DNA from: Catajapyx aquilonaris
Taxonomy: Eukaryota
Direction: 5' to 3'
DNA length: 45,287 nucleotides
NCBI GenBank assembly: GCA_000934665.2
Contig: KZ538852.1
Location: 1-45,287 of the forward strand
Positions 24,510-44,747 of the stretch are shown in pieces. The position numbers and the translations under genes are program-made. The notes under the pieces were generated by a model that worked only from the letters and a program-made list of their open reading frames with translations, ran no database searches and was not told the origin of the DNA. How positions within the stretch are numbered: the first letter of the stretch is position 1; each line of letters begins with the position of its first letter.

Positions 24510-25965
24510 ATGGCTAGGAAAAAGAGACGCCAAAAAAATAAAGACAAGCCCGTGCACAGTCAGAAGCGAAGTGAACCTTCACCCCAGAAGAAAAGGAGGG
24601 TGGAGAGTGGGTCAGACCAATTTGATATTGGTGGAAATTGTCTGACAGTGAAGGAAACATTGCCTCATCAAAATCAGCAGGATGAGTTAAATGTGGACTC
24701 AGTAATAATAGTTGCAACTGTGCATAAATTACGAGAAGCCAACCATCTCGGGTACGCCCAATATCAAGAAAAAGAGAAGCAAATTGCCCACAATGAGAGT
24801 GATTCTGGAATAAGTTGTGGACATGGTGAAGACAGGGGTGAGGACAGGGATCCACCAAATGGATCAGTCTCTTCCATTAGTCCACTACCCCTATGGAGTG
24901 CTGTGGAAAGTCCTGTTGATCCGATTCCATTAGCGAGTGAGGCGAGTTACTCACTAAATGTTGTAAGTGAAATGCTCAAACATTTGGAAGGAAGTAACGA
25001 GAATGTCAGCTGGTCACCAGATAAGGAACTAGCCACATTGAATTCAGAAGATATGTCTCTTTTTGACAGCTTGCCAGTTTGTGCAGTGAGCGCTTTTTTG
25101 AGGCATGAGAGTGAGGGATTGGCATCAGAGGAAAAGAGTCAGGCTGAAGACATCAACCACATAAAATCCCACGGGAAGCCACATGAGGTAAAACTGTACA
25201 GTAGTACACCACAGACTAAGAGTCTCTGTCACGAAGACCAGCAACCAGGTCATCCATTAGAAATTATTGATGTTCAGGTTGAGGGTCCAACCATTCATGG
25301 GAGTAAATTGAGTTGTGAAAGGCAGTTTGAAGTACCAAAGAAGTACCCTCTTTCAGAACAGGTTTGCAATAGCAATAACCTGACAGATACCCAGATGGAT
25401 ATTGTGACAGACGAGTCAGAAACGGATAATAGTGCAGCATCAAATAGAAGTAATGAACCCCTGAATATGGATGATAGTGAATGCAAAGGTGTAAGCATTG
25501 CCAAGAGTTCACCTGAAAAAGCCAAGTCAAGGTCGTGTGAAGGAAGAGAATCAAAGGCGAAAGAAGCCCTGGAAAAAGAAAAGAAGGTGGCTATCAGAAA
25601 AGAAGGTGGGCCAGGGAAACTCGGACATGAACATGAAGGACATAAAAGCAGCATTCAAAAAAAGACTGTGTGTGGGGTACAAGGCTTAGCGAAGAAGACG
25701 AAGGAGGAAGGCAGGAGGACTGACAAAACTAGTGTAACAAAGCCACGTAGCTCTACTTCCAAGCAAGTTAGTGATAGAGAGCAGGCAGGTGATATTCCTC
25801 TCAAACGGAAGGAAGGCTTGGCGCAAAGCAAATCGAAGGACTCCGAGGGAGAAAAGGCAGGTGGGAAAAGAACCCATGAAGTTCCAATGGGTTTACCTGG
25901 GAAACCAAGGAGTATGACTCACAGCAAATTATTGCAACAGCGTTTTATGAATGATACCAGTGAAG
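24510..25965 (+). CDS. Dnmt3: DNMT3-like gene, coding exon 1: ~485-aa charged/low-complexity N-terminus with basic NLS-like motifs (RKKRR, PQKKRRV)
   Basis: Long open frame; polypyrimidine tract plus CAG acceptor at 24470; AAG|GTAAGA donor at 25966; phase 1 matches the ADD exon at 31316. The link to the downstream exons is inferred from phase and position, not homology. Confidence 0.8.
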
Positions 25966-26595
25966 GTAAGAATCTTTATAATATTGATAGGTGGATGTGC
26001 ATGCATTTAATTAAGGTCTCTCTACATATTTCTGTTGACACCAGTAGTTTCAAGTTTTGTGTCATGTTACGTATAGAGAGGATTCATGGAATTAGGTCTA
26101 ACCTGTCTGCATATAGAGTGTGCTTGCTTGCCAAACAGTGCCTTAATGTTGTGAGAATTTTGGATAATTGAAGATGTGACAATGCAAAGGTGTAAGTGCC
26201 GAAAACCGGATTCTGAGTTGTGTTTGATTTTTTCTCCGCAAGAAACATTATGCCATAGGCAACCTGCCCCATCTACTGGCCAAATGTAGAACCTTCCTGA
26301 TTTTTCTGGCACTTGGGACTTCTACCCCACATTGGCAATGGCATATAGGATACGTTGACTCAATCCAGATTTTTTAGCACTTAGGACCTTTGCATTGTCA
26401 CGTCTTCAATTCACTTTGGTGGCTTATAAGAACAAAAGCTTCATCCAATTATTATTGAGAATATTGGATAATTTCATTAAGGACAGTATGACCAAAGCCA
26501 TTCTCTTACAGCACCAGGTTCCTTTCTTACCACATTACCAACATGTTACCCCTCACTACTGGAACATTGCAGATTGTAGAATGCCCCATTAAGTA

Positions 26596-27216
26596 CAGGG
26601 TGGGCGAAAAGTCCCAGGACACCAGGCTTTTTTTGCCTGCGAAACAAATCTGTGCATGGAAAATGTGTCTGGGATACTGGTGTGACATCGTCTGGACACA
26701 GACGGAACTGTTTGATGAGGGGAGACATCTGGGGACCCCCAACAACACCCACAGTAAGTTAACAGTGTTAACAGTGCAAGATGGCGGATATGAGCAGGTT
26801 CACTGTGGAGGAGAGAGTGGCTGCTGTGTGGGCCTCATACGGGAAAGAACATAACGCACACCATGCAGGATTTCAGGGCTGGTTTTGGTAAGGCGCCACC
26901 GAGCAGAAGTAACTTGTTCCAGTGGGAGAAAAAAGCATTCAGCACGGGAAGTGTCATGAGGTCTCTCGTCGTGGACCCACACAGCAGTCACAAGTCTCTC
27001 CTCCACAGTGAACCCATTCGTATCCGCCATCTTGCACTGTTATCACTGTTAACTTACTGTGGGTGTTGTTGGGGGTCCCCAGATGTCTCCCCTCATCAAA
27101 CAGTTCCATCTGTGTCCAGACGATGTCACGTACACCAGTATCTCATGCACATTTTCCATGCACAGATTTGTTTCGCAGGCAAAAAAAAAAGCCTGGTGTC
27201 CTGGGACCTGGGACTG
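26596..27216. mobile_element. Tc1/mariner-derived foldback MITE (two inverted transposase 5' ends)
   Basis: TA-flanked CAGGGTG... end; ~230-bp inverted arms; N-terminal HTH-like remnants MADTNGFTVEERLVTAVWVH (-) and FGKAPPSRSNLFQWEKKAFSTGSV (+). Confidence 0.85.
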
Positions 27217-27609
27217 TAATTTGCCTCTAGTAACAGCACAAAGGTAAAGGACCTCATCTTATTATCGCCACAGTGCTGCAATGCATATTGACCCAAAGCT
27301 ATGTCTCGCCATTGCCAATTTTATGTTATCTGCATTATTTGTGATATAGAAATGAAATATCATATGTGTTGGGAGTTTCATAATTAGCTTAATATGAATT
27401 GCCATGCCTCTATTCTGTTGACGAGATGTTCGGGAGAACAGCAAGTTATACTCATTTTAGTTCAGTTTCTCTCCGAGGTTCGAAGTTGGGGGTAGGTAGT
27501 AAGAGGAGGTGAAAAATAGTGAGGCTAGACTCTCCATTGTTAACATAAGGGGTATCCATAACAAGGAGGATATTATTAGAAAAGCATTTTGTTGATGCGC
27601 GTTTAGATA

Positions 27610-28369
27610 CGAGGGCCGTACTAAAATGATTGACAATTTATTTTTTGCCGCAAATACAGTGCCTGTACAGCGGTCAGCAGATAGTCACATATTATAGATA
27701 GAATCCTCCTGGAGGTGAATACACAGGAGCATGGGTGTGAAACCTCTCCTTGCCCTCCAGGAAGAATTTTTTGGAGGAACTTCACACCCACTCCCGGACA
27801 ACTGCTTGCAGTCAACCAAGTCCTCGACATGGCGTCGACAAAGGTTTTTTTTTTTCATGTCTCTGAACAGGCGAAAGTTACTGGGTGCCATGTCTGGTGA
27901 GTATGGCGGGTGTGGAAGCACCGAAACCCAGATCCAGGGAAAAAAAACCCATTGCCAATGCCATTTCGAGGACATTGTTTATAGTTGTTGACTGTGAGCA
28001 GTTGTCCGGTAGTGGTGCGTCGCACCTCCAAAAGGTGGTTCCTGGAGGGCCTGGAGAGCCTGGAGAGGTTGACACACATGTGGTGGTATGACATTTGGCT
28101 CCAGGAGGACTCTATCTATAATGTGTCACTATCTGCCTACCTGCTGTACAGTGCTGGCCATATATCGAGGCAACCGTCAGCGACACTTTTCCGAAGCGGC
28201 AGAAGAAGGAATCTTGCTCGCCCGGCTTGTAGCATGCTCATCTTCAATTCCTTCTTCTGCCGCTTAGGGAAAATGTCACTGGCGGTTGCCTCGATATATG
28301 GCCAGCACTGTACAGGCACTGTATTTGTGGCAAAAAAATAAATTGCCAATCATTTTAGTATGGCCCTCG
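27610..28369 (-). mobile_element. Deleted/rearranged mariner element
   Basis: TA TSD; TIR CGAGGGCCgTACTAAAATGATTG; - strand peptide VLPHPPYSPDMAPSNFRLF (mariner YSPDLAP motif). Confidence 0.9.
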
Positions 28370-28877
28370 TATAATGTGCTTGTGATAGACCAAGATGAAA
28401 GGTTGTTCAGAAGGTGATTTCAATGGGTGAATAGGTATCTGGTCTGATGTAGATGAAAGGAAGAGGGCTTGTCAGGTGTGGGTATACTTATTAGTCCTAA
28501 GCTGGTTCACTGTGTGAAAGCGTTATTTAGTCAGGTCAGTGAGAGAATTATGTGGGTGAGTCTGAAGGTGGTTAAGACTAGGATTGTGATAGTGGCTATG
28601 TATGCACCAGTTGACTCATCTTTGGAAGAGGATATAAGGAGAGGTTCTGGGATAGTTTAACCCTAGAACCATGACGTGGGGTCTTTTAGGACCCCAAAGG
28701 AAATAAAATGCATCACAGTGAGTGACCTTGAAACGATAATGACCTGAAACTCCTGTATTTCTTTAAAAAACCTCATTTCATGGATCAAATCTGGTTTCTC
28801 AGATATTCTGTATGAGACTTGTGATAGAAAAGTATTTAGCTGTAAACAAGCAGGTTTATGTTGCCTTTGTAGACTTA

Positions 28878-29036
28878 GGCTGGGTTGCACCGGCTCCCAG
28901 AAAATTTGTCTGGCCAAAGAAGAGCCAGGATAGTTTGTTATTCATTGTTGACATAATTGTTGACAACAATGAATAACAAGCAAATCGGGCTCTTCGTCGG
29001 CCAGACAAATTTTCCAGGAGCCAGTGCAACCCGGCC
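28878..29036. mobile_element. PIF/Harbinger (Tourist-like) MITE, copy 2
   Basis: TTA TSD; near-identical to 21178-21333. Confidence 0.85.
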
Positions 29037-29256
29037 TTAGAGAAAGCCTATGACACAGTAAGTAGGGTAGGTTTGTGGGAAGTTCCGAGTCTACATGGAG
29101 TGAAGGGTTCCCTGTTGGAGGCTGTAAAGTCATTGTATGAAGAGAGTAGAACTAGTGGGGCTTTCTCTGACTGGTTTAACATTAGTGTTGGGGTTAATCA
29201 GAGTTGTGTCACGTCTCCCTGGTTATTTAACTTGTATTTAGATTCATGTGTAAGGG

Positions 29257-29600
29257 GGGGGGGGGAAGTGTAGATGCCCAAGATAGTAACGTCTTGGCTT
29301 GCTGAGGGAAAGGCTCCGGTTCAATTCCTGCCTGTGGAGTTTTCCTTTCACCTGTGTCAGGAGGGTCTCTGACCTGCGCCTTGGGAGGTGTCTGGCAACC
29401 TAACCTCCTGGGGAACAGCACATGGCCCCTTTACAGACCTTGCACTTGCACCACATGTTCCCTCCTCAAAAATCCCTATCCTTACCCATGTCCCTGTCTC
29501 CTTTCACCGGTGAGCGAAGAAAAATGGTACACAGTTACAGGCCACCCCCCTAAAAAGGCTCCGCCTTATCACGGGGTAACGTAAAGAAAGAATAAAGAAA
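29257..29600 (+). mobile_element. tRNA-derived SINE family 1 inserted in the LINE RT
   Basis: Homologous to 21362 and 37388; flanked by approximate duplication gat(t/g)catg..tgtaaggg. Confidence 0.85.
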
Positions 29601-30215
29601 GATGCATGAGTGTGTAAGGGAAGCTATGATTGAAGGTGTAGGAGTACATTTTGGTGATGATATAGTTAGTCACTTGCTGTATGCGGATGATTATGCCTTT
29701 CTGGCGGAGAGTGAGGCTGATTTACAGTCAAGTCTGTCCAAGTTGGACAAAGTTTGTGAGAAGAGGGGTATGAGGATTAACGTAGATAAGACTAAGGTAT
29801 TGGTATTTGAGAGAGGACAGCAGGTTTCTCCTTGTATGTTGCAGGTACGAGGAAAACTGGTTGAGCAGGTCAACCAGTTTGTATACCTGGGTAGTGTCCT
29901 TGAGAGTAATGGTAGAATGGATGGGGAGATTGACAGGAGAGTTAGTTCTGGGTTGAAAGTGATAGGTGCCACAAGTAAGTTCTCTAGAAATAAGGACTTA
30001 TCTTCTGCCTGTAGGTTGCCTGTCTATTCGCACGTTATTGTTCCTTCACTTATGTATGGTAATGAAGAGCGGGCTTGGTCAGATAGGCATAAGAGTAGGG
30101 TGTTGGCTACAGAGATGCGTTAAATCCGGGCTGTTTGTGGGGTTACTAAGTTGGATAGGATTAGGAATGAGGAGATTTTGCAGAGGTGTAATATTTAGGA
30201 GACTGTTAAAGATAA

Positions 30216-30759
30216 GGGTTGAAATTTTCGTCCTACTGATAGTCATTGCTAACTCATCAGTAGGCCTACCATTGCCAACACTGGTACTGCTAAGTTAGCA
30301 GTGACTGTACAGGGTGTATCTGAACTCAGTGCACAGACGTATATGACTGCCTTCCTAGCCACTAGAGGATCAACTTATGTAGAGGAGTCATTATGTCTGG
30401 GCAGCCTCATTACTAAGATACTCTTTAGCGATTTTTGCCTAATCGCTCCTTCTGACTTTGAAATAGAATTTTCTGGTGTAACTAGCCAAAGAGACCTTGC
30501 CACCTGTGGGCAACAAACCAACAAAGTCCGGCCCCCAGACCTTCCAGAGCCTTCTGACTGGGGGAGGGTTCGATGGGTGGCCTAACCGACAGGATATTTT
30601 GTACTACATGTTTGCGGCCAATTATCTCAGTAATGTGGCGGCCAGACATAATGACTCCTATACTTAAATGGATCCTCTGGTGGCTAGGAAGGCAGTCATA
30701 TACGTCTGTGCACTGAGTTCAGATACACCCTGTATATCAGTGGGACGAAAATTCCACCC
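30216..30759. mobile_element. Small MITE (same family as 23893-24310) inserted in the LINE
   Basis: gggttgaaattttcgtcctactg ... cagtgggacgaaaattccaccc; internal gccaacactggtact is the reverse complement of sequence near 24257. Confidence 0.75.
30310..30732. mobile_element. Tc1/mariner MITE nested in the 30216-30759 MITE
   Basis: TA TSD; ~60-bp near-perfect TIR CAGGGTGTATCTGAACTCAGTGCACAGACGTATATGACTGCCTTCCTAGCCAC. Confidence 0.9.
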
Positions 30760-31315
30760 ATGGTGTATAGGACAAATCTAAGGTGGTTTGGGCCATGTGG
30801 AGAGGATGAAGGAGGAGGAGATAACGAAGGTTTATTTCAATGGAGTAGTTGGTATGAGTGGCACAAGGCCTATTCCTAGGAAGACATGGTTGGACCATGT
30901 GGGTCAGTGTCTTAAGCATAAGGGTGTTGCTAGTGTTAAGCCTAGAGGTTCAGAGGACCATGGACGTGGCTGAGGCTAAGGTTGTTTGTTTAGACAAGTG
31001 TAAATGGCATAGGGTAATTAATGGGGGTGAGTAATGGAGGAGGAGGGAGGGACACAGGAGATGTTAGGAGCATTCACGCAGACAATTACACATGAGGGGG
31101 TGGGGGGTAGGACAGGTAGTTTATAGTTTTATTTTTATAATATTTAATTTAATTCATATGTGGGGTTAACTTGCTTCTCCCTTCATCACTGACTACCCCT
31201 TATAGGGAAATGTCGTGACGTTGTTGTTGTTGTAGTTTGCTTGCAGATTGCCATGCTTGAGTTTGACTTCTATTTGTTGAAACCTGTGTCTTAATGTCTT
31301 CTTTTGATGTTGCAG

Positions 31316-31494
31316 GATGTGCAATGGATAAGGTGCGAACTAATCATCTGAAGATAGATGACACATGCATTGCATGCAGGTTACTCTCAGTGAAACCGGT
31401 GGAATGCCATCCTTTCTTTTCTGGAGGAATCTGTGAAAAGTGCAAGAAGAAATTAATCAAGACCCTTTATGTTTGCGGAGAAGATGGAACCAGT
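31316..31494 (+). CDS. Dnmt3: DNMT3-like coding exon 2: ADD domain, GATA-like finger (CIAC...HPFFSGGICEKC...GEDG)
   Basis: Aligns by eye to DNMT3A CISC...HPLFVGGMCQNC...DDDG; tgCAG acceptor, GTAAGT donor at 31495; phase 1 to 0. Confidence 0.95.
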
Positions 31495-31658
31495 GTAAGT
31501 GAATTTCTATTAATCTCGTAGTTAACACTTATTTGGATCATTATAATTATGAAGTGAATTGTTCAATGCGAAAGATGATTACTGTATTACCCCATGTATT
31601 GTGGCTGGTCAAAACAGTGGAGACCTGCGGGTTGTGCCCTTTTTGTCTCTTTATTTTA

Positions 31659-32045
31659 CATAGATGCGGCACCCGGCTTTGCCCGGGAAGAAATGAATGA
31701 AGGGAAAACACCTGCCAGTAGCCACGTCAAAATCCTCACGCACAGAGAGCCGCAGTGATAGTTTTCCCAGCCGTTTTGGACTTGGCAAGAAGTCGACATT
31801 TGCACGTGCCACCTTGTTCATCAGCTCCTCATTAAGGCGCCGGAGAACAATAACATCTCTCCGGCGGTGCCTCCCCCCACCTGCTGATAAAGTGGATGTA
31901 CTCTAATCCCACCTCAGCTGCAACCCCTCCCGTCCTTCCCACCCGGACCACAGATGGGAGGCAAATGACGGTTGGCAGGCGGACAGACAGATAGACGGAA
32001 AGACGGAAAGACAGACAGACTCACAAACGGCTTTATTTATATAGA
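31659..32045 (-). mobile_element. Non-autonomous Helitron (Lep1-like)
   Basis: - strand A|TCTATATAAATAAA 5' end, (CTGT)n microsatellite, 3' hairpin CCCGGGCAAAGCCGGG before a degenerate CTAG. Confidence 0.7.
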
Positions 32046-32233
32046 TGAGTCAAGTCATGGTAGCACATGTTTTTGCTGGCCCTTCCCCAAATAAGCATTA
32101 TTATCAAGAGGGAGCCACCTCCAGAAGGAATTAAGGCAGGATCTGCAATTAGGGTGGTATCATAAAGTGGCTGAGCTTGAACTTGGCCTGAGAAATGGAA
32201 TGTGTGATATGACAGGATATATTCATATACAGT

Positions 32234-32453
32234 AGGGTCACCTCTGGCTTTGTCTCGGGTGGTATTTCCGTTAAGACAAACCACCCGGGGAAGTTCACTA
32301 AAAATGGCCACACAAGGACATAGCACTGCACCTTGCACATGCCTCCTGTGATCCTGCCCGTGGGCCCAGGCGCTTTAATAAATAGGTTCCAAAAATGTAC
32401 ATTGTACAAATAAAGATCTGTGCTACATGCCCAGAGGCCAAGCACTACCCGGA

Positions 32454-32547
<94 letters not shown>
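32234..32547 (+). mobile_element. 5'-truncated SINE family 2 with expanded (ATT)n tail
   Basis: Matches 7557-7790 (agggtcacctctggct..gtctcgggtggtatttcc...); (ATT)n tract ~32455-32545; tatacagta flanks both sides. Confidence 0.85.
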
Positions 32548-32548
<1 letters not shown>

Positions 32549-32590
32549 ATACAGTAAGTAACATTTGTGTTCCCCCCGCCCCTCTTACAG

Positions 32591-32655
32591 GTTTATTGCA
32601 TCATCTGCAGCGATGCTAAGCAAGTGATTACTTGCTCAAAACGCACTTGCAACAG
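32591..32655 (+). CDS. Dnmt3: DNMT3-like coding exon 3: ADD PHD finger (VYCIICSDAKQVITCSKRTCN)
   Basis: cf. DNMT3A [20 protein letters not shown]; ttaCAG acceptor, AG|GTATT donor; phase 0 to 2; not in the ORF track. Confidence 0.95.
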
Positions 32656-32740
32656 GTATTGTCTTTTATGCTGTTCCTCAGAGGACATAATGGGAATGAT
32701 GAAACAGAATTTTTCAGTCATGCTTTCATTACATTTATAG

Positions 32741-32894
32741 TACGTTTTGCAAGAAATGTTTGAAGGCCTTGGCAGGCCCAGGTGAAGTAGAAATGATTTT
32801 GGGAGATGACCTCTCGACATGGCTCTGCTACTTTTGCAGGGATGACTATGAAGGCATTGATTTTCTTGTCAAGCGGGATGGGTGGCAGCGTTAT
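32741..32894 (+). CDS. Dnmt3: DNMT3-like coding exon 4: ADD C-terminal part (FCKKCLKALAGPG...WLCYFC...KRDGW)
   Basis: cf. DNMT3A FCVECVDLLVGPG...WNCYMC...RREDW; ttaTAG acceptor, GTAAGT donor; phase 2 to 0. Confidence 0.95.
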
Positions 32895-32957
32895 GTAAGT
32901 ATATTACTAGGCAGCAACAGACTCATGAGTGTATTATTAAATATTTTTGTATTTCAG

Positions 32958-33060
32958 GTAATCAAATTATACTCACCTTTTTACTACATCAGTAATAAAA
33001 ATGTGAGTTATAAGATTCGACAAATGCGAGTTTTATCCATATTTGATGGAATCGGAACAG
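32958..33060 (+). CDS. Dnmt3: DNMT3-like coding exon 5: linker and MTase motif I (MRVLSIFDGIGTG)
   Basis: cf. DNMT3A IRVLSLFDGIATG; tttCAG acceptor, CAG|GTATTG donor; phase 0 to 1. Confidence 0.95.
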
Positions 33061-33503
33061 GTATTGTGAAAGATTCATTATTTTTATGTGGGAAATGTCA
33101 GTGTCAGGGAGGTTTTGAAGTGACCAGTAACTACAAACCTGAAATTGTGACATCAACCAGTTTTGATTGTTCTGGGATGCATTAGTATGGGCACATCAAT
33201 TGACAGTTTCAGGTATTCTTTCTGAATGATTTCTCATTAGAAGGTGTTTTACTCTCTCAGTTGATATGGTGTCCAAATCAAAAATCATGGGCGATTTTAT
33301 AAATACATTCATTATTGCAGTTGAATGAGAGGGCTCATTTTAGTAACTTTATCATCATTTCATGTGTTGTTTGTTATTCCTTATAAATTATAATATTAGG
33401 TGAAAAAATGAAACTCAATTTTAGCCTCCTTCGATCTCCAACTGGGAAATTTGGATTCGGAAATTAACTTTTTTGAACTTCAAATGGCCACCAAAAGCAT
33501 TAA

Positions 33504-33964
33504 CCCTTAACTACGTAGGTGGCGCCTGAGAGGCTCCAAGCACTATTTAAACGCATGTAACTTTTTCATTGAATTTTATTTTCCCCTGTCCTTCTTTGTC
33601 AGAAAAACCTTCCTAAGCATGAAAAGGAAAGTAAATTTTTTAAAGTCCCTATTGTTTGGTTAAAAAAAATTCGTAACGAGGAACAGGTCCCTCCTGGAAC
33701 CGATGAGGCTCTATATCTCGTAGGTGAAGTCTGAGCAGCTCAAGCATGATGTAACCTTTTAAGAATTTTTCCCTGTCGGAATATGCTGACTCAGCGTGTG
33801 ATTTTTACGTTTTCGGAAGCCTAGTGATCTGAACTGCACTTTCTGTATGTGAAAAGTCCAATATAACAATTTAGTTGATAAGCAGAAATTTAAATATACC
33901 GTTGGAGCCTCTCAGGCTCCACCTACGTAGTTAAAGGTGTTTCGCCCACCTACGTAGTTAAGGG
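33504..33964. mobile_element. piggyBac-type non-autonomous element
   Basis: TTAA TSD (33500-03, 33965-68); TIR CCCTTAACTACGTAGGTGG; duplicated subterminal copy at the right end. Confidence 0.9.
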
Positions 33965-34621
33965 TTAAGATTGTTTAAAAATCTTTGTTTTACAGAAACG
34001 ATTTTGTAGAGAGTAGCCAGTAATCCAGTAAAATTAATATTAGTGGAGTTAATGCAGATTTCCCATTGTGTTTATGAAATTTAGATTACTCCTCAAGAAC
34101 AGTAAGCTACTCATAAACCTGAGCATTTTCTAGCATTGTCATAAAAAAAACATTGTATAACAGTTCTATATGTGGCCAAATAAAGTTGGGAAAAATTGCA
34201 CAATAATAATTTTCAAAACCTACTTTCTCAGCTGGGGGATCTCATTAAGGTCAAACTGAGTTTCATTTTTCATCAAATATTACTGCAGTAGAACATTATC
34301 TTAAAATTATTGCGAGTCACTGCAAAATCAATCCTGGGAGGTATCCTTTCATTGCAAAGAGAGCTGCTGCTGTTAATACGCCAAAAGGACGAATTGAACC
34401 TTTTCATAATTTTACAGGCGAGCCAAAAGAAACCTGCAAACTGATATACTAAAAAAGAAGATGCCATGACAAGCAAAATGGGGATAGTGAACAAAATGTA
34501 CTTCCCATGATCATGAGGCACACGCATTACTCATGTAATATGCATGTATCAATGACATAGTCAGAATTCGCCCTTTTGTCAGCTTTTACTTGGACCAAGT
34601 GATTGTTGCAAAAAAGAAGTA

Positions 34622-36075
34622 GGGGAGATCAGGGTCGGTTGTAATAGGGTATGATTGTAGCATTGCCAATAATAAATACGTTTGGAAAGCCCTGAAGCTG
34701 AAACTCACACAGCACGTGTGTCACTATGGCTCTCAGCCAGGCAAAACTTAGGCGTCTCCTTTTTGGTTTTTTGTTCTTCTATATGCAAAAAACCAAAATC
34801 AAGGTGTGTTCCCAACTTTTCAAGTGACAGTAATCAAGTGATTATGTGAAGGGTAGAGGTGACATTTTTGAATTGCCCTTGGTATCATGAGAAAGGTTCC
34901 TGTAGTGGGGTCACACTGACCGTATGTGGATGACCAAATCATGTGTACAGTTAAAAAGTAGTAAGCATATCTGCAAGACAACACACAACAGTTGTAACAG
35001 CTTACTTTGGGGTCAGTTGTAACGTGGTAAAATCATAAGAGAAAGGTCACGTCGGTCATGTCTGTGTACAGATGTTACAGCTACACATGTCACATATCTC
35101 ACAGGATATTGAGAGTAGAAGTAATTATTATTTTGTGCAATAAAGCCTCTTATAACCAGTTGGTCGAAAATTTATATGAATAAAAAATCTATTCTCTTTG
35201 AATACTATTCTGCTGAATAAATTCCAGTGTATCGAGAGATATAGAGCAATCTATGTGGATCAAGTAGGTCATAAAGACAATTTCCGAGAAGATGAGTGGG
35301 TGTAAACTGTTCTTCCATATTACATTTGCCATTTAAGACGTAGTGTTACAATCGACCCCGCCCTCTGTTACAACTGCCCGTATGATGGGGTCGGTTGTGA
35401 CACTCGGCCTTGCCTTGGAAAAATATTTATACATCTATCAATTTTTAAGGGGGCGCACTAGTAAAAAAATACGGTAACAATCGGTAACAATGCGAGCCCT
35501 TGGCGACTACGTAAACAAACTCGCGTTTGCATGGACAGCATATGGGGATTCGACATGTCCACGCTTCTGCGGCCGTACGGCCACAAAAATGGAGCAATGG
35601 ACACAAAAATTACACCAAAAAATAGGACATGATCTGGCGCAGGGCACCTTCGGCGTCATTTTACCATTTTCGGCCTAGAAGTGACCTTTTCATCAAGTTG
35701 AAGTGAAGGAAAATGGCGTTCCCGAAAAGCCCATATGAATAACATGGCGGGAGGAACGCGACAAATTCGGGAACGCTTCGGCGCCCGTATGTCCACAATT
35801 TTAATGCAATCATATCGAGTATGGTACCATAGTAAAGACCAAACCTTTCCGCAGGGCACCTTCGGCGTGATTTTTCCGATTAACCGTTCGTTTCGCCACA
35901 AAAAATAAAATTCCCTCAAAAATGCGCCTACCGTATTTTTACTCATGCGCCCCCTTAATCTTAAGATTTCATTATAGACAATTTTACATCATGTCAAAAA
36001 CCTGTGCCTAAATGCATATGTAACTGAATTAAAAAATCCATACTAAAAAGTGTTACAATCGACCCCGATCTCTCC
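34622..36075. mobile_element. TA-flanked non-autonomous DNA transposon (pogo-like)
   Basis: TIR GGGGAGATCaGGGTCGGTTGTAA / TTACAATCGACCCCGATCTCTCC; internal repeats of ggggtc(g/a)gttgt. Confidence 0.8.
35449..35954. mobile_element. TTAA-flanked element with GGGGGCGCA termini (Kolobok-like) nested in 34622-36075
   Basis: TTAA|GGGGGCGCA..AGTAAAAA..TACGGTA ... TACCGTATTTTTACTCATGCGCCCCC|TTAA. Confidence 0.8.
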
Positions 36076-36488
36076 TATATTAATTGTGCACAATATGGAG
36101 ATTTTTTTTTCAGGGTTATCACATTGCATGACAATGACAAGATTAGCATCGTAAGGGTTCATAAGTGAGACACTTCATAACATGTTACCTTCGTATGAAC
36201 ATAATTATACCATAAGGAAAGACACCAAAGTAACGTTTGCCGGAGCAAAATATTTTTGGCTACTGTTAATGCGAGAGATACATAGAGCTCTGAGAGGAAT
36301 CCTCACTTAAGAATGTAGTATCTTCTGGCTGAGTTTCACATTTTGTCTGAATGCGACACAACACTTTACGGTGCTGCCAGTGGCCAAAACTCAATTTTGG
36401 AAAAAATGTTGAATGTTGAAATGTTGTTTTGTCACATTAGCGCTATTTATGGAATTAATGATATTTAATACTATTAATTTTCAACCAG

Positions 36489-36713
36489 GACTCTATGTGC
36501 TGGATAAGTTAGGACTGAAAATTGAGAGATACCTGTCTGCTGAAAATGATGGCGATGCGAAGAATCTAGTCAGCTTGAAGTTTGGAGAAAAAATTAAGCC
36601 TCTGAGCTCAGTGGAGAATGTAGTTGGTTCAGAACTGGATAGTATGGGACAGATTGACCTGGTTCTTGCCAATATACCCTACACTGCTGCAGAGACACCA
36701 GAAGCTACAGCTG
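36489..36713 (+). CDS. Dnmt3: DNMT3-like coding exon 6: motifs II-IV (LYVLDKLGLKIERYLSAE...IDLVLANIPY)
   Basis: cf. DNMT3A LLVLKDLGIQVDRYIASE...FDLVIGGSPC; acCAG acceptor, G|GTGAGT donor; phase 1 to 1. Confidence 0.95.
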
Positions 36714-36761
36714 GTGAGTGATTAACTAGATTTGAATTAAAGTGTTTGTGGAGTGTAAGTA

Positions 36762-37775
36762 CAGGGTCATCGAAAAAGAATGTCCCTATTTTAAATCTGG
36801 CCATAACTCAAAAACTTGTAGACATATCTAAATCATTTCAGTTTTAAAATGCTAAGAAATGTCTAAGGTTTTGGCCTTACCATAGTTTGTTTCGATGTGA
36901 GCTCCATTTGTCACTCAGAAAATGCAAAGACAGTAATCGGTGTCGTGCCTAACCCGCTCAGACATGTCTGGCATTGCCGTTGCAGTCTAATGACGTAGGT
37001 GCTGGAGATGCCCGATCTTTTCACCATACGTGTATCTCCCAAAAAAGTCAATCGGGGTAAGATCCGGGCTTCTGGCAGGTGCTATGCCTGGAGAGACTTC
37101 TCATTCAAGACTTCTCACACTAGGAGGCTGAACAAATGAAACTTTCCTAATGCAGGATTGTTTCATGGATGAGGAGACTTTTTATGTGCGTCATCAAAAA
37201 TAATGTGTGGTGTAAAGACTTGTCATATCCAGCACCTATGGGATAGGATTGCAACAACACCGATTATCGCCTTTTTTGTCTGCTGAGCGACAAATTAAGC
37301 TAATATCTAAACAAAATAAGGTGATACCAAAACTGTAGACATTTCCTAGCATTTCATAACAGAAATCATGTAGATATGTTTACAAGTGGGGAGGTGTGGT
37401 GGCCGAGATGGTAACGTCTCGGCTTGCTGAGTGAAAGGTCCCAGGTTCGATCCCCGCCTGGGAGTTCCCTCTCACCTGCATCAGGAGGGTCTCTAACCCG
37501 GCACCTAGGAGGTGTCTGGCAATCTGACCTCCTGGGGGACTGCACATGGCCTGGCGCTTGACATTGCACCTGCACCCGTGTCCCCTCCCCAAAAATCCCT
37601 TTCCTTACCCTATGTCCTTCTTTCCCTATACCGGAGTAAAACCAACTAGAAAACTGATGGTGGTGTGCCATCCCCCTATAGACCCGTAAGGGTCATCGCA
37701 GGGTTTCAAAAAAAAGTTTACAAGTTTTCGAGTTACAGGGATTTAAAATAGTGACATTCTTTTTCGATGACCCTG
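36762..37775. mobile_element. Tc1/mariner non-autonomous element
   Basis: TA TSD; TIR CAGGGTCATCGAAAAAGAATGTC.CTATTTTAAATC; begins 48 bp after the exon 6 donor. Confidence 0.9.
37388..37715 (+). mobile_element. tRNA-derived SINE family 1 nested in the mariner element
   Basis: B box GGTTCGATCCC; A tail; 10-bp TSD gtttacaagt at 37378 and 37716. Confidence 0.9.
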
Positions 37776-38032
37776 TATAATATGCTCTTCCTATGGGTCG
37801 TGTCAAGAAAAAATGGGTCAAATTGCAGGATAAAGTAACCATGGATCAAGAGCATAAGCGCTTCTGCTCTGCAAGACTGGTTGTGGGGACAGGTCCACAA
37901 GCCATGTTTTCATGTATGAACACTCCCTTAGGAAGTTCAATTTATAGAAATTTCATTGTATTGGTAACTCCCCCTGAACAAGTGTTCATATATTTGAATA
38001 GGTATTGAATAATTTACTTATTTACTTTGCAG

Positions 38033-38162
38033 AGATAATCAAGATGTTCCATGAATTTCATCGCATACTACAAAATGTTCAGATCCGTAACAATGGCCAT
38101 CACGTTTTCTGGCTATTTGAGTGCACGGCTATGGAAAAAAAGGAACAAGACATAATGACTAG
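38033..38162 (+). CDS. Dnmt3: DNMT3-like coding exon 7: motifs V-VII (IIKMFHEFHRILQ...HVFWLFECTAMEKKEQDIMTR)
   Basis: cf. DNMT3A RLFFEFYRLL...[22 protein letters not shown]; ttgCAG acceptor, AG|GTGAGT donor; phase 1 to 2; not in the ORF track. Confidence 0.95.
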
Positions 38163-38884
38163 GTGAGTTAATGATGCAAAGGTTTGCACCTGAATGTTTT
38201 CTGGGAAGATATGAAGTTTTGTTGCCGAAATGAGGAACGTACCACTCCCGTGAGCTTGGAGTGGGCTTATCATTGCTTATGTAAGTTGAATTCATACGTT
38301 TCTCTTTCCTGCCTTCGTCATGCCCAGCTAGCTGCCAATTTTCATTGAGGTGCCACTTTACGAGACGTTTGATAATGCATCCACTTGGCAGCATCTTGAT
38401 TCCACAATATTCCAAATTGAACCATTGTTTACTCTTTACACCTATTACCCACAGCAACTTCTAGCATAATTTTTTAAAGTTGAACTAGAAACTTAGTAAG
38501 ATACTGTAGTTACTTCAGGGAAGTTGGTGGAAGCATGTTTCATCACATGGTTGAATGGTTGCACAATCTCCTTTAGGCCAGGTGCAAATGGGGTAATTTG
38601 GGAGTAACTTGTTGTCTGACCCCCTGCCTGAGCATTTGGGCTTCCCCCCCCCACATTTCTTGCTTGCAAGAAATTAGTCTCTGGCAGTTGGTGTCTCCTG
38701 GCAGGAAACAAGTTACTCCCAAAATCCCTCGTTTGTGCCCATCCTGAGACACTGTATATACAGTAATGACATTTTCATAAGGGAAGATGAGAAATGAAAG
38801 CAGCCTTCCACACAAAGATGTCTCTGAGATTAAATGTTGCAGTAAAATGATTATGCACAGATGTGGCAAGGGTATCAAGCAAGC

Positions 38885-38956
38885 GCTCTTGTAGCTTAGT
38901 GGCAGAGCAAACACTTGATTCAAGTGTTGACCTGGGTTCAATTCCTGGCAGGGGCC
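38885..38956 (+). pseudogene. tRNA-like cloverleaf (tRNA pseudogene or SINE head)
   Basis: Acceptor GCTCTTG/CAGGGGC, D arm GCTT/GAGC with AGTGG, T arm CTGGG-TTCAATT-CCTGG; non-canonical anticodon arm. Confidence 0.65.
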
Positions 38957-39330
38957 GTGCTATACAATATTACTCCGTCACATCTTGCTATGTTACTGAT
39001 CCTGTCCATAACCTTGAACACTTACTTGAAAGAAGTGTGTGTAAATCATAACTTGATGTGAAGAGTTGTTGTATATCTAGTGAAAAATTGTAATCTGCAT
39101 TTTTGGATAATAATATCAATACAGTTTGATTGCTTGCTTCTGGAATGCTCTTCATCACTAATTCAATCAGCACTATATAATTATGAGGCATTCCTCGTCA
39201 AGCGGAACACCTTCCTACAAATCTTTTCCGATTTTGACCAAATTCGAGTATGTTGTGGTGCCCATGCATGTACGTGTGTCTGTAACCAAGTTTGTTTCAC
39301 TCTACGATGTCCATTTGTCCATTTGTCCCA

Positions 39331-39565
39331 AGGTTGTGGGTTCGAACCCGGCCGAGGTCGGTGACTTTTCTCCGGGTGGTAGAAAAGTGAGAGTGCGCCT
39401 TCCTCCGGAGGGGAAGTAAAGCCGTTGGTCCTGTGTGCTTGTGACATTGCGCGAGTGCACGTTAAAGATCCCCAGAGTGGCCAAATTTCCAGGAGGAGGA
39501 CCACCCCCTGGCGTCGGTGTTGAGCCTTAGAGGCAGAAATAGGCAGACGTTAAGCCCCACTGAAC
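39331..39565 (+). mobile_element. 5'-truncated tRNA-derived SINE family 5
   Basis: B box GGTTCGAACCC then ggaggggaagtaaagccgttggtcc...gcacgttaaagatcccc, a core that resembles arthropod SINEs. Confidence 0.7.
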
Positions 39566-40756
39566 CTAGGTGTAGGAGGTGAAAGTAATTCACAATTAGA
39601 GGACACCCCTAGCCTTTAGTGGTCCTTGCAAGAGGGTTCAATGCACAAGTGAGACAAGGAGTTATGATTACAGATCTGATAGATCTGATATCAGTGAAGT
39701 CAAAGGTCAGCTTGATGGGCTTTGTAGACAACTCACTAATTTTTAACAAAGCCTAATATTGCAACAAGCTGTAATGCCACATTCTATCCAAAATTATGTA
39801 ATTTTTGTTGGTAATGACAATTTGATGTACCGGCTTAATTTGAAAGATATGCTACTGACTACTGACTACCCTGAATTGCAGTAAAAGTTTGTGAAAACTT
39901 TTAGGGGCAATATTAAATTTTAACATTGCTAAATTGCATTAATACTTGTAATGTCAAAAGTACCCACACTAATTTGTGCATACTGAAGGGATCATTATTA
40001 CAGGAATATTTTTTTTTTCAGTTTGGAAATAAATTTAGTGAAGTCGTGCTTTAAAAGTGATAATATCCTCCCGAGACCTGAGAAGAATTTTTAATGCAAT
40101 GTCAGTTCCTATTGCATTTTCTGAAAATTTTCCCAATAAGAAATGAGAAAAAAATTTAAGTTTTAAAAACTGAACTGTATAATGCAAAGCACACTTCCTT
40201 ATGGGTGTATAGGTACAGGCACTTAAAGAAATGCCACAACCCATTCAGCTAAAAATAATAATTTCGAATGTCCATTTAAATGGGCATTTGGTCTCTGGAA
40301 GAAAAGAAAATTACCAGTTCTCTACAGCAACAAAGATTGTCCCAGACACATCTTTTCGTATTTCCCAATCCACATTCCTTGAGAATCCCAGGACATTCAC
40401 TGGATTACGAAAATGGCACTCTCAATATGAGTAAAAAAATAAAACTTATCAGATGAGCGCCTAGCTTCAGCAGCGGAATCTGCCATTTTCATAAGTGATT
40501 CAATTTTTGGGGCCAAATTCAGATATTCAACACTTGGTGGCTACACCTATTGAGGCCAGATTGTAATCATGGGATACCAACAGATTACAGTTCTGTTGGC
40601 ATCACTAGTTGGCGCCAAAAAAATTCATTAGCTGATGTCGACACCAGGTCTCAGGAGGATATTACAAGTTGCCCTTGCCTTCCATACAATAGGCCAGGGC
40701 TATTCAACTAGTTTATTCCAAGGGCCAGTATTTACCTTTCCTGGACCATTACAGGG

Positions 40757-40815
40757 CTCTCTCTCTTTCTCTCTCTCTCTCTCTNNNNNNNNNNNNNNNN
40801 NNNNNNNNNNNNNNN
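40757..40815. repeat. (CT)n microsatellite running into an assembly gap
   Basis: ctct repeats followed by an N run at 40785-40815. Confidence 0.9.
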
Positions 40816-42774
40816 CCGGGGTACATAATATGTTGAATTTGGTGTCAGTCAACATATGCAGAAGTGATTGAAAGTGGAGGGATAATTATCAAATATCCTT
40901 ATGGGGAGCCTTGGGAGCCCATTTGTAAGTGCAGACCGCAGGAAATCATACTGCAATAAGTAAGTAGGCCAGTATCAAAACCAGGCTACCTATTTCAGAA
41001 CTAAAATTCCAGGAAAGGGGAATTTATGATTTTGCATTTTTTTTTTTAACGGCCCAGGGAAAAGTAACATGTTCATTATTATTATTATGCTCTGCCATGT
41101 CTCCTTTCACATATCCAGAGCATGGAAGTCATGATATATGTATAAACAAAATCATAATGATAAATTGAAAATATATTATGATACCCTGGTTGTGAAGCAG
41201 CCAAGGAAGATTTCCTATACTTTGTTCAAGGCAGGTTGATAATGCAGGGCAATGCTAAAAGCTCTTCAAAACGCAAATTTTAATAGCATAAGTGATGCAT
41301 AATGAAAGTCGCAATGAAAAGCGATAATTTGTCATCCAAAGTCGTCTTCATTACATTGGTTTATTTCCATATAACTGTCTAATTTATCTTTCAATCAACT
41401 GGTTTTAAGTAGTTACTAAAGGCAGGTTCAGACACTGGGTGATTTTGCTACGTCCATACAAATTTCGCATTTATTTTAAATGATAAATAGGCAGACAATT
41501 AAATTGCACTTTTGTGGAACGATGGTATTTAGCCTGGACTACCAATTCCGTTGCCAACTAATTTTTGGATAATTTCAAAGATAGATTGGTTGTGATAATC
41601 ATCATCATCGCCATCACCATCGCGGCATTTCCCGATAAAGCGATGCAGGGAGAGCAAGGTAACCCAACATATGAACTAAATTAAAACTTTCCAGGTGTAC
41701 ACCTGAGCACGGGGTATGAAAATAAAATAAATAAATAAATAAATAAATAAAACTAAATTAAAACTAAATAAACCAATAAACAACCCGTCCCACCCCTCAC
41801 CCCTCTGGTTGTGATAATGACCTACTAATTTAAGTATAGTAAGTACCCGTTTTACGGCGCTCCATTTCATATCCGCCGTTTCATATTAACCCAGGTTTGA
41901 AAATGACATGTTAAAAAATTGTAGATGAAAAATGGTTAAAAATTTGACGATAACAATGCAATCTGATCATAAACACATCACTGCAACACTTCTGGGTCCA
42001 AACACACGACCATAAAGGGCTCTTTTTTGTTTTTCGTGGTGCCTTGTGGTGCCTTGTGGTGGGGTCTATTGATAAATACAGTACTGCCAGGTTGTTAAAA
42101 TTAAGTACTGTCTGAGGGAAATTTTTGGAAATTTTTGGAACCTATTTCATTTACTTCCACATTATAATAGGCTATTGTCTCATTTTACTCCGTTTCACTT
42201 TTCGCCGTATTTTGCTGGAACCAATTTATGGCGTAAAACGGGTACTACCTGTAGGCCTACTGCAGGAAGTACTGCACAACCGACACCATTTCCTTCTGCA
42301 ATAGTAGTGGAAGACCAGGGAAGACCCTCGCGAAGCACAGGTTTGCTGCTGGCGGGGCTGACAGGGTGCCCAGTGTTGGATTCTCAGCCCCCAACGCATA
42401 TGGGAAAGTGCTATATGAGCTGGATCTACTGGAATATGACCAGTGAATAAGGAAAATGGCGTCCTTCAATCTCTTGAACCAATAAGAACACGTTATTTAC
42501 ATCCATTACTATGCAGCCATCATATTGTTGTCAACAATATGGAAAACGGAAAAACGCGGAATTTTATGGGGGCTTCCAAACATTGCGGATTGTGGACTTT
42601 TCCTGGACTCAGGGAAGCATAAGACATAGGTGTGAAAAATTTCAGTGCTCTCAGGACCTGGGAAGTGGGTTAAGTAGGCGTGCATGTAAGGCATCGGTGT
42701 AAAAAATTTCAGTCCTCTCAGAGGTGTGGAAGTGCGTCAGGTAGCCGTGACATACATACAAAGATTCTGCTATA

Positions 42775-43308
42775 TGGGGTGTAAATGAATTCAGCCGACA
42801 AACTTGTAGGGGTAATAGAGGGGACCAAGACAAACATATTTGACATAGGAAACCGTGTCCGGAAACGTCATCTAGAGGGGGTTCATAGACAAGGAACGGG
42901 TGCGCTCAGACGCGTCAGGCTCGCGGTGTTAGCGAGCGGACCGTTTAGTTGCTAGGTGGCGGGCGGATTGTACACGACTTTGCATTTCGCCATAACCTGG
43001 CAACAACAGAGTTGTTGTTTATTATCTGCGCGCTACCTAGCATGCTGACTTTACTTGCTAGGTGGCTCTGTTGTTGCCAGGTTATGGTGAATTGCAAAGT
43101 TGTGTACAATCCGCCCGCCACCTAGCAACTAAACGGTCCGCTCGCTAACGCCGCCAGCCTGACGGGTCTGAGCGCACCCGTTCCTTGTCTATGAACCCCC
43201 TCTAGATGGCGTTTCCGGACACGGTTTTCTATGTCAAATATGTTTGTCTTGGTCCCCTCTATTACCCCTACAAGTTTGTAAGTAAGTGTTGAATTCATTT
43301 ACACCCTG
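42775..43308. mobile_element. Near-perfect palindromic Tc1/mariner-type MITE
   Basis: TA flanks; TIR (C/T)(A/G)GGGTGTAAATGAATTCA; ~235-bp arms with few mismatches around a ~55-nt loop. Confidence 0.9.
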
Positions 43309-43860
43309 TATATATAGAGATTATTATTGTATTTGAAAAAAAAAATTATTGGAACTCGCGGCCTCCCCTAGGCAAGTGCCTACTGTGCCTAATGGGAAAT
43401 GCGGTGCTGATGCTTACATCTCATCGAAGACACCTTAACTGCCTTAAGACGGGTTGTTCGTAAACCAGGGACTTCCTGTACTGAAAATGAAATATTTTCA
43501 GTGTTGCTAAAGTATTTTAGATAAATGATATAATATGCAAGTAACAGTGGTCCCCTCTTTGCTCCTGGAACTACATTGACAAAATCAGTTGATGCAAGAA
43601 ACTTTGACAAGACGAGGTATTGGTTTGACATATTGTAGTGCTTCACGATGAGGCGTAAGAGACACCACAAAATCACCCAGGGAAACACGCCGGGGGAAAA
43701 GGTAAAACCACCACTGTGGACATTTATTCAGGACAATAGGTACAGCACATCCGTCCAGGAGGAAGGTAGAACAAGAACTGATTTACATTCAAATCAACAA
43801 TCACAACTTCCTGGCAACCAGGGCAACAGACAACAGCCAGGTTGCCAGGACACTACAATA

Positions 43861-44203
43861 TAGGAAGTCCCTGGTTTACGAACGGGGTTACATTTCTGAA
43901 AATGTCCGCAAGTCGGATTTGCATGTAACTTGTATCTCCGAGGAACAGCCCATATATACAGCATAAAGATGCTGTTCCAATGAACCGCTTATGTCATGTG
44001 TGTTTGCTTACATGCACAGAAGAACTTAGTTTCCCAATGCTTTATTAATTATACATGATTTACATTGAACTTGGTGTTGGTCAACATACGCAGAAGTGAT
44101 TTAAAGTTTAGGAAATCATCCTTATGAAGAGCTTTGGGAACTCTTTCATAAGTAGGCCTACAGATCACCATAGGTCGGGTTGTTTGTAAACCGGGACGAC
44201 CTG
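43861..44203. mobile_element. Tigger/pogo-like MITE
   Basis: TA-flanked taggaagtccctggtttacgaac ... gtttgtaaaccgggacgacctg; a further end of the same family at ~43450-43480. Confidence 0.7.
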
Positions 44204-44281
44204 TAATACTTCTCAATTGCTGCAAGGAAACAATGGAAGTTGCACTGTTTGTGAGATTTTATTTATTTATTTCGCATTTAG

Positions 44282-44747
44282 GTTCCTGGAATGCGACCCC
44301 GTAACTCTGGATCCAGCGCTGATCCCCAATACATTCTTTGGGCGTTCATTTTGGGGCAACATTCCTGGATTGCGGGCAACACTGGCCACAGAGAAGTTGG
44401 CAAAGCGACTTTCTCTTCAGGAGTTCCTTGTTGGAAGTTCCAAGCCCAGTGCAGCGGAGAGCTGCATGCTGCTCTCTCTCCCTAATCCAACAGGAAGTAC
44501 TTCCAGCAATGGAATGTATTTCCCTGCCTCCACTGCAGAGATGAAGTCCAATGCCCTGTATCCCATGCAGTGGTTCAGTGAGATTGTGACTGCCTATGGT
44601 ATGGACAGCCAGTTGGCGACCCTGAATATGCTCTCACCTGGGACATGCAGGAAACTTCTCCACAGAGCCTCCAGTGCCCTGGTCACTGCTCATATCTTGA
44701 GAACTCTCACTCACTTCTTTACCTGCGTGAATGATGACAAACTCTAG
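44282..44747 (+). CDS. Dnmt3: DNMT3-like coding exon 8: motif VIII, TRD, motifs IX-X and stop
   Basis: RFLECDPVTLD...RSFWGNIPG...LSLQEFL...RKLLHRASS..VTAHILRTLTHFFTCV, cf. DNMT3A RFLESNPVMID...RYFWGNLPG...LELQECL...QRLLGRSWS..VIRHLFAPLKEYFACV; ttTAG acceptor, phase 2. Confidence 0.95.

Follow-up and report, generated by a model that had tools for sequence, protein, structure and literature searches.

An intact-looking DNMT3-family gene with a replaced catalytic center in Catajapyx aquilonaris: a candidate non-catalytic chromatin reader or partner

We analyzed contig KZ538852.1 of Catajapyx aquilonaris (assembly GCA_000934665.2), a window of 45,287 nucleotides (nt) to which all coordinates below refer, and describe in it an eight-exon DNMT3-like gene on the + strand (24510–44747). 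Its product carries an ADD zinc finger, with a GATA-like and a PHD part, upstream of a methyltransferase-like (MTase-like) domain, which is the order expected of the DNMT3 family, and the residues of the catalytic center have been replaced while the frame has stayed open. We tentatively read the locus as an intact-looking gene for a non-catalytic DNMT3-family pseudoenzyme that serves as a chromatin reader or as a partner of other proteins. Separate parts of this reading stand on firmer ground than the whole: the loss of C5-methylation activity and a long history of selection are both well supported, and the role proposed for the protein is the most conjectural step.

The catalytic center is replaced

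The C-terminal domain is homologous to and colinear with the C5-MTase domain of DNMT3 enzymes. In phmmer searches of PDB chains, exon 8 matched DNMT3C (E = 1.4e-8) and DNMT3B (E = 2e-8), with query residues 1–149 corresponding to DNMT3A 772–912, and the matches of exon 6 (E = 4e-4) and, weakly, exon 7 (E = 1.4) to DNMT3A, DNMT3B and DNMT3C chains fell in the expected order. The Pfam DNA_methylase family gave no match from single exons. For the comparison of motifs we used solved DNMT3 chains together with 11 canonical DNMT3s; apart from 710 and 772–912, the positions in the human protein were numbered by counting.

C5 methyltransferases require the cysteine of motif IV as their nucleophile. 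Exon 6 aligns without gaps to the full-length human DNMT3A chain 9lq1_A (query 2–63 = 648–709), and the next position pairs the two active-site loops, with Pro63 and Tyr64 of the query on Pro709 and Cys710. Tyr717 of the protein (codon 36680–36682) therefore occupies the place of the catalytic cysteine, which is present in 11 of 11 aligned canonical DNMT3s. The surrounding motif reads ANIPYTAAE where canonical enzymes have GGSPCNDLS, and the loop that follows is seven amino acids (aa) shorter than the canonical one. Because the nucleophile is needed and has been replaced, C5 activity is very unlikely, and to judge from the sequence the protein has very probably lost the ability to methylate cytosine at C5.

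The changes extend well beyond motif IV. Among the motifs that bind S-adenosylmethionine (SAM), motif I (FDGIGTG) and the motif II glutamate (E671 = human E664) are retained, and the motif III aspartate has been replaced (GD to SS, with S693 at the position of human D686). The Glu-Asn-Val of motif VI in active C5 enzymes is ECT here, the glutamate alone surviving. The helix after motif IV reads MFHEFHRIL against a canonical LFFEFYRIL. In motif VIII, RAR has become FGR, with R790 replaced by Phe, R792 retained and the adjoining FWGNIPG intact; in motif X, GRSW has become HRAS, with the R891-equivalent arginine retained and W893 replaced by Ser. The first residue of exon 8 corresponds to DNMT3A F772 and is retained, whereas the equivalents of human D876, R882 and R885, located by an ungapped alignment of the last 46 residues of exon 8 ending at 912, are T, P and C. 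The DNA-contact loop of the target-recognition domain (TRD) is unrecognizable, and motif IX has been rewritten. The initial annotation, a reading of the letters alone, had noted the retention of motif I and the motif II glutamate and the four substitutions PC to PY, ENV to ECT, RAR to FGR and GRSW to HRAS; the alignments bear out all of these, and for the last two they specify which residues persist.

In canonical bilaterian DNMT3s, including those of the millipede Chamberlinius (P0006), the annelid Owenia (P0002), a tick, a shrimp and a fish, the ADD and MTase domains stand in the same order and are colinear with ours over 422 columns, at no more than 31% identity. All 11 aligned canonical DNMT3s keep SPCNDL, ENV, RxR-FWGN, the TRD pattern T-TT--NS, FGFP-HYTD and G(K/R)(A/S)WSVPV, every one of which is changed here. 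Alternative exons encoding canonical PC, ENV, RxR-FWGN, GRSW, TRD, FGFP or PWWP motifs were absent from all six frames of the window.

The losses are not spread evenly. In an alignment with ten canonical DNMT3s, drawn from annelid, millipede, priapulid, nematomorph, shrimp, gastropod and fish, we took as near-invariant the 119 columns in which nine or more of the ten agree. Three of these are gapped in the gene model, and of the 97 scored in the MTase-like domain 48 are retained. Retention is high in motifs I–II (16/20), the helix after motif IV (3/5), motif VI (4/5), the RFLEC segment (5/6) and motif VIII (7/10), and low in the motif III segment (0/4), the motif IV loop (3/17), the TRD (3/7) and motifs IX–X (7/22). 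When the five retained and the four lost segments are pooled, in a grouping made post hoc, the contrast is 35/46 against 13/50 (Fisher p = 1.6e-6).

The ADD zinc finger is retained

The first finger of the ADD is recognized by Pfam on exon 2 (PF17980, the DNMT3 ADD finger; E = 1.1e-11, 44.9 bits against a cutoff of 26). Its PHD part, split between exons 3 and 4, is seen by PF21255 on exon 4 at a score below the cutoff (E = 9.5e-5). All 12 zinc-ligand cysteines are present in the alignment at the positions given in Table 1, and they are accompanied by three extra cysteines; the 12-cysteine ADD of the initial annotation is thus confirmed by both profile and alignment. Near-invariant columns of the ADD and the linker are retained in 15 of 19 cases, every zinc cysteine among them. 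Against PDB chains, exon 2 matched the ADD of DNMT3L best (E = 7e-9), followed by DNMT3B (3.7e-7) and DNMT3A (1e-5), and exon 4 gave weak matches to the ADDs of DNMT3L, DNMT3A and ATRX.

An open frame and a CpG-depleted gene body

An open reading frame (ORF) at this degree of divergence is hard to reconcile with long neutrality. We simulated neutral drift of the 440 ADD and MTase codons in 300 runs, a conservative test because it ignores indels and splice sites. Drift to 31% identity introduced a mean of 15 stops and left the frame open in 0 of 300 runs, compared with 18 of 300 at 90% identity and 50 of 300 at 95%. The composition of the codon positions is coding-like. Together, the open frame in this test, the preserved zinc ligands, the non-uniform losses and the coding-like composition argue that the protein was under selection for most of its divergence, and we consider it very probable that selection kept the gene over most of its history. 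The initial annotation had named a pseudogene in decay as one outcome that would overturn its reading; long decay is ruled out by the 0 of 300 open runs, and a recent death is compatible with the data.

The ratio of observed to expected CpG dinucleotides (CpG o/e) is 0.80 over 1–17 kb of the window and 0.51 over the gene body (p = 8e-5), and it falls to 0.39 in the coding sequence. Mosaic CpG depletion is an outcome of germline gene-body methylation in many invertebrates. The pattern suggests, indirectly, that DNA methylation is or was functional in this genome, and that the gene sits in a stretch that is methylated and for that reason probably transcribed. The drop, to about 0.5, begins near 19 kb, some 5 kb 5′ of the ATG, and suggests a methylated transcription unit that starts 5′ of exon 1. 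Local exceptions occur at 35–36 kb (CpG o/e 1.17) and at 45.0–45.3 kb (1.01, with a GC fraction of 0.50).

Relatives are distant and canonical

A profile-free search of 1.84 billion representative proteins with exon 8 returned 16 matches at E ≤ 1e-3. Fifteen are canonical DNMT3s of 26–32% identity, in a list led by protostomes; the sixteenth (P0001), a repeat protein whose match is confined to residues 135–149, is spurious, and we rejected it. Word-indexed searches against longer proteins with exon 8 (752 candidates) and with exon 1 (6153 candidates) contained no orthologue, and in a scan of metagenome contigs none of 508 pattern matches was confirmed. Because no close relative appears among the 1.84 billion representatives, the gene is probably unannotated or restricted to its lineage.

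When 16 sequences were placed in a maximum-likelihood tree, the DNMT3-like protein sat on a terminal branch of 4.06 changes per site, compared with a median of 0.91, or about four times the length found for canonical DNMT3s. No sister group receives support, so that the protein is left unplaced, and across the 422 aligned columns it reaches at best 31% identity.

Among sequencing runs, exon 1 was found in four DNA runs of one sample, possibly the source of the window itself, and no RNA run was listed as carrying it. Exon-bearing contigs in one DNA run have depths of 24–34, against sums in the thousands for the repeat bins; since depth does not measure copy number, single copy is no more than a hint. 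A small run from 2022 of the same organism, of unclear kind, contains 13% of the words and one identical 255-nt contig inside exon 1. Read joints on the gene all fall in repeats, with none at the seven introns. The runs concerned are of DNA or of unclear kind, and neither observation bears on expression.

Gene model and N-terminal region

Read from canonical splice signals, the eight exons join into 2778 nt that encode 925 aa and a TAG stop, with zero internal stops; all seven introns are GT..AG and the exon phases are consistent (Table 1). This agrees in count and coordinates with the initial annotation, which had listed eight phase-consistent exons and 925 aa free of stops and frameshifts. 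Translation would start at 24510, on the earliest ATG of the open frame, in a context with A at −3 and G at +4.

Table 1. Exons of the DNMT3-like gene and a candidate splice site upstream of it (positions in the window).
Feature	Position	Strand	Content or basis
Possible 3′ splice site, 39 nt 5′ of ATG	24459..24470	+	polypyrimidine tract and CAG; sequence reading
Exon 1, aa 1–486	24510..25965	+	ATG, two KKRR motifs, 485-aa S/K/E-rich region, no known domain
Exon 2, aa 486–545	31316..31494	+	ADD GATA-like zinc finger (Cys 503, 506, 525, 528), acidic EDG loop
Exon 3, aa 546–567	32591..32655	+	ADD PHD finger, first part (Cys 548, 551, 560, 565)
Exon 4, aa 567–618	32741..32894	+	remainder of ADD PHD finger (Cys 570, 573, 596, 599), start of linker
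Exon 5, aa 619–653	32958..33060	+	linker, MTase motif I VLSIFDGIGTG intact
Exon 6, aa 653–728	36489..36713	+	motif II Glu E671; SS at 692–693 (motif III); motif IV ANIPYTAAE
Exon 7, aa 728–771	38033..38162	+	helix 3′ of motif IV (MFHEFHRIL), motif VI FWLFECT
Exon 8, aa 771–925 and TAG	44282..44747	+	RFLEC, motif VIII FGRSFWGNIPG, rewritten TRD, motif IX YGMDSQLAT, motif X HRASSALV

At the 5′ end, the stretch between the candidate acceptor and the ATG is in frame and stop-free, and the acceptor could mark either an intron in the 5′ untranslated region (UTR) or an upstream coding exon. At the 3′ end, a GTGAGT consensus donor directly follows the TAG stop of exon 8 (44745–44753). As read from the sequence, the acceptor before the ATG and the donor after the stop suggest UTR introns or extra exons. 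The motif AATAAA is absent from the 540 nt 3′ of the stop.

Exon 1 encodes a region of 485 aa rich in Ser, Lys and Glu, with two KKRR motifs resembling nuclear localization signals (NLS) at aa 4–7 and 27–30. Pfam found zero families on it. A single-sequence AlphaFold2 (AF2) model of exon 1 has a mean predicted local distance difference test (pLDDT) score of 40.8, with 412 of 485 residues below 50 and no beta-barrel, and the region is probably disordered.

The DNMT3 family layout includes a PWWP domain N-terminal to the ADD, and within the window no such domain was found. Pfam detected none on exon 1 or on 100 other ORFs of at least 75 aa, where only reverse-transcriptase fragments of long interspersed nuclear elements (LINEs) matched. 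In tblastn searches, 15 canonical DNMT3s, several of them PWWP-bearing, matched exons 2–8 only; the best matches upstream of the gene (E = 0.14 and 0.19) look spurious. These searches and the AF2 model, which is weak evidence as a single-sequence prediction, concur with the earlier observation that no PWWP is visible.

Discussion

The protein combines a preserved ADD with a disabled MTase-like domain. According to the review PMC5062992, DNMT3A contacts DNMT3L through a hydrophobic FF interface and itself through a polar RD interface, which is also the DNA-binding site; DNMT3L is without the RD interface and thus caps the complex. In the Catajapyx protein, the two FF-interface helices are comparatively conserved (3/5 and 5/6 near-invariant columns) and F772 is kept, whereas the RD positions and the arginine position that is a hotspot in acute myeloid leukemia (AML) have been replaced (T and C, and P, respectively). 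The other FF phenylalanine, which we take to be human F732 (a number counted back from E756 and F772), is histidine.

We propose the following sequence of events. The ADD would bind the tail of histone H3 when K4 is unmethylated, as other ADDs do, and the dead MTase-like domain would serve as a docking module whose FF-type surface binds an active DNMT3 or some other partner. With its RD surface apparently missing, the protein could cap or regulate such a complex without binding DNA itself, much as is described or suggested for DNMT3L, DNMT3B3, Daphnia DNMT3.1 and aphid Dnmt3x. The long charged N-terminus could provide nuclear targeting or additional contacts. A role of this DNMT3L-like kind, as a partner of DNMT3, is a reasonable candidate that we put forward tentatively.

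Several observations weigh against this proposal. One of the two FF phenylalanines has been lost, as noted above. DNMT3L lost motifs I and II; their integrity here is unexpected for a pure scaffold, and the domain may still bind SAM and have another function. The MTase exons 6, 7 and 8 match no DNMT3L chain in the PDB at E ≤ 10. The best relatives are canonical DNMT3s of low identity, and with no orthologue among the matches dN/dS is not computable. The repeats that fill the introns may, through a history of their own, account for part of the CpG depletion seen there. Finally, the gene may have been inactivated recently, since some 5–10% amino-acid drift can leave a frame free of stops.

This last idea, of a recently inactivated or never-expressed copy whose frame is open for lack of time, would fit the very long branch, the want of an orthologue among 1.84 billion representatives and the word-indexed candidates, and the 50 of 300 neutral runs that remained open at 95% identity. 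We nevertheless regard it as improbable: seven of seven introns are GT-AG and in phase across 925 open codons, the zinc cysteines (12/12) and 15 of 19 ADD invariants are retained, the losses are non-uniform (p = 1.6e-6), and the bulk of the divergence cannot have been neutral (0/300). A stronger competitor, although still on the unlikely side, is that the protein reads or scaffolds chromatin independently of methylation and may even be the only DNMT3 of its lineage; the MTase fold would then be structural or mediate self-association without a partner, and the ADD and N-terminus would recruit or repress through histone tails. The disordered, NLS-bearing, K/E-rich N-terminus of 485 aa, which DNMT3L does not have, speaks for such a protein, as does the replaced FF phenylalanine, and catalysis-independent roles of DNMT3 are discussed in PMC8016896. 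On the other hand, the segments of the FF helix and RFLEC are better preserved than the adjacent loops, which suggests a conserved protein–protein surface, and the depletion of CpG in the gene body implies a working methylation system, present or past, in this genome.

The retained SAM-pocket residues raise the alternative of an enzyme with altered chemistry or substrate. The motif IV tetrapeptide N-I-P-Y, read directly in the sequence, resembles what we take to be the (D/N/S)-x-P-(Y/F) tetrapeptide of amino-methyltransferases, at the same place in the fold, and 16 of 20 motif I–II invariants, E671 and the R891-equivalent arginine persist. Yet the motif III aspartate and the motif X Ser-Trp are gone, the exon 6 ORF matches no amino-methyltransferase Pfam family at E ≤ 1, and a literature search on a NIPY methyltransferase motif IV was without match; moreover, the proline is ancestral and few changes are needed, so that a chance resemblance is plausible. 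A SAM-dependent enzyme of this sort is therefore very improbable, and its more specific form, an ADD-guided enzyme acting on another atom or substrate than cytosine C5, such as a base exocyclic amine or a chromatin protein side chain, is slightly more so. A different concern touches the architecture alone: if the model were missing upstream coding exons, for example for a PWWP, the PWWP-less layout would be an artefact. The strong acceptor 39 nt 5′ of the ATG, with an in-frame, stop-free stretch behind it, and the CpG depletion that starts about 5 kb 5′ of the ATG are what such a model would predict. We think it quite improbable, given that the upstream tblastn matches of 15 DNMT3s are at chance level (best E = 0.14), that Pfam is empty on 56 upstream ORFs of at least 75 aa, and that the ATG has a good context and opens an NLS-like N-terminus.

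Our preferred reading, a non-catalytic DNMT3-family protein, places the gene among relatives of a kind known in mammals, water fleas and aphids. Mammalian DNMT3L has a comparable layout: like the Catajapyx protein, as it appears within the window, it consists of an ADD and a dead MTase-like domain and is PWWP-less. It has no functional RD interface, a trait that the replaced residues make likely for our protein too, and its ADD is the best solved match of our first ADD finger. Sequence membership in DNMT3L does not follow. The ADD alone matches DNMT3L, and exon 8 matches DNMT3A, DNMT3B and DNMT3C at about 1e-8. Unlike in DNMT3L, the C-terminal half (TRD and motifs IX–X) is of full length here and has undergone replacements in place of deletions; motif I, too, is intact, a disordered N-terminus of 485 aa has been added and one FF phenylalanine is histidine. 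The DNMT3L-like protein of the initial annotation is thus upheld as an intact-looking, PWWP-less DNMT3-family gene with its ADD kept and its active site disabled, and not as a DNMT3L by sequence.

In heterotetramers of DNMT3, the accessory place can be filled by DNMT3B3 and similar inactive isoforms of DNMT3B. Solved chains of DNMT3B isoform 3 or 7 match residues 1–31 of exon 8 only, and the next segment is missing in them. Those isoforms are spliced from an active gene and keep the PC of motif IV, whereas here a separate gene has active-site replacements throughout.

Two arthropod proteins are of a comparable kind. Daphnia magna DNMT3.1 has a diverged MTase domain, has been likened to DNMT3L and is proposed to bind DNMT3.2; it lacks five of six motifs, motif VI alone being kept, its CRISPR mutant has a phenotype under starvation, and the PWWP-less copy in that species is the active DNMT3.2 (PMC8016896). 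Compared by description, the Catajapyx protein differs in having kept motif I together with parts of II, VI and VIII, and in that no PWWP is seen in the diverged copy itself. Aphid Dnmt3x is a diverged paralogue without the residues for methyltransferase activity, suggested to be Dnmt3L-like, retained for more than 106 million years and co-expressed with dnmt3a in germ cells (bioRxiv 10.1101/2024.02.14.579807). Dnmt3x is reported to have both PWWP and ADD, and the Catajapyx protein shows no PWWP. Long, repeat-filled introns and a GC content of 42% do not look typical of aphids.

These precedents temper the claim of novelty. The initial annotation, which itself mentioned divergent DNMT3 copies in some arthropods such as Daphnia, overrated the novelty of a convergent DNMT3L-like protein in an invertebrate: Daphnia DNMT3.1 and aphid Dnmt3x are published as dead or diverged copies likened to DNMT3L. 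A literature search for DNMT3L-like proteins in invertebrates under that name had no match, and the passages of PMC8821070 retrieved by term searches are silent on paralogues of DNMT3 and on inactive copies. An independent origin of the Catajapyx gene is likely but unproven. What sets it apart from the Daphnia and aphid copies, compared by description, is the combination of a PWWP-less layout, preserved motifs I and II, a C-terminal half of full length, a long disordered N-terminus and the absence of a close relative. A DNMT3A-like protein of the tick Haemaphysalis longicornis (P0004) presents the opposite case, with all MTase motifs kept, the ADD cysteines lost and a poor ADD alignment. Arthropod DNMT3 copies may often have lost one module while keeping the other.

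In mammals, the non-catalytic DNMT3 relatives DNMT3L and DNMT3B3 set the site and strength of de novo methylation. Should invertebrates, too, have given rise to dead copies time and again, the pairing of enzyme and pseudoenzyme would be a recurrent solution. The Catajapyx gene also amounts to a natural experiment, in which the ADD has been kept along with the motifs of the SAM pocket and the greater part of the FF helices, and the nucleophile, the DNA-contacting TRD and, to judge by the replaced residues, the RD interface have been lost; comparing kept with lost surfaces separates what selection still needs from what it does not.

Repeats and other features of the window

The introns of the gene are rich in repeats. 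Intron 1 contains a fragmented LINE-type reverse transcriptase at 28977–30120 on the + strand (RVT_1, E = 2e-8 and 7e-4), whose best protein relative is an ENA protein of 33% identity and over which contigs from the DNA run sum to depths in the tens of thousands. An ORF at 27688–27978 on the − strand appears by eye to be the C-terminal part of what we take to be a mariner-type transposase; Pfam assigns it no family at E ≤ 0.01. Between 26500 and 27250, also in intron 1, translations of ORFs on opposite strands share peptide-like strings, as expected of an inverted duplication of a repeat unit, and a read joint (26954/27060) falls within it.

Two tRNA-like sequences lie on the + strand at 18854–18925 and at 38885–38956, the second in intron 7. 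They score 38–39 bits against the Rfam tRNA family, are called Ser-GCT and Asn-ATT by ARAGORN and are probably the heads of tRNA-derived short interspersed nuclear elements; further tRNA-like stretches recur in other ORF translations of the window. Intron 7 also holds an assembly gap of 31 Ns (40785–40815) flanked by simple repeat of the CT/GA type, and single Ns occur at 1077, 3263, 8109 and 17483, within homopolymer-like runs. An (ATT)n microsatellite occupies 32447–32554 in intron 2.

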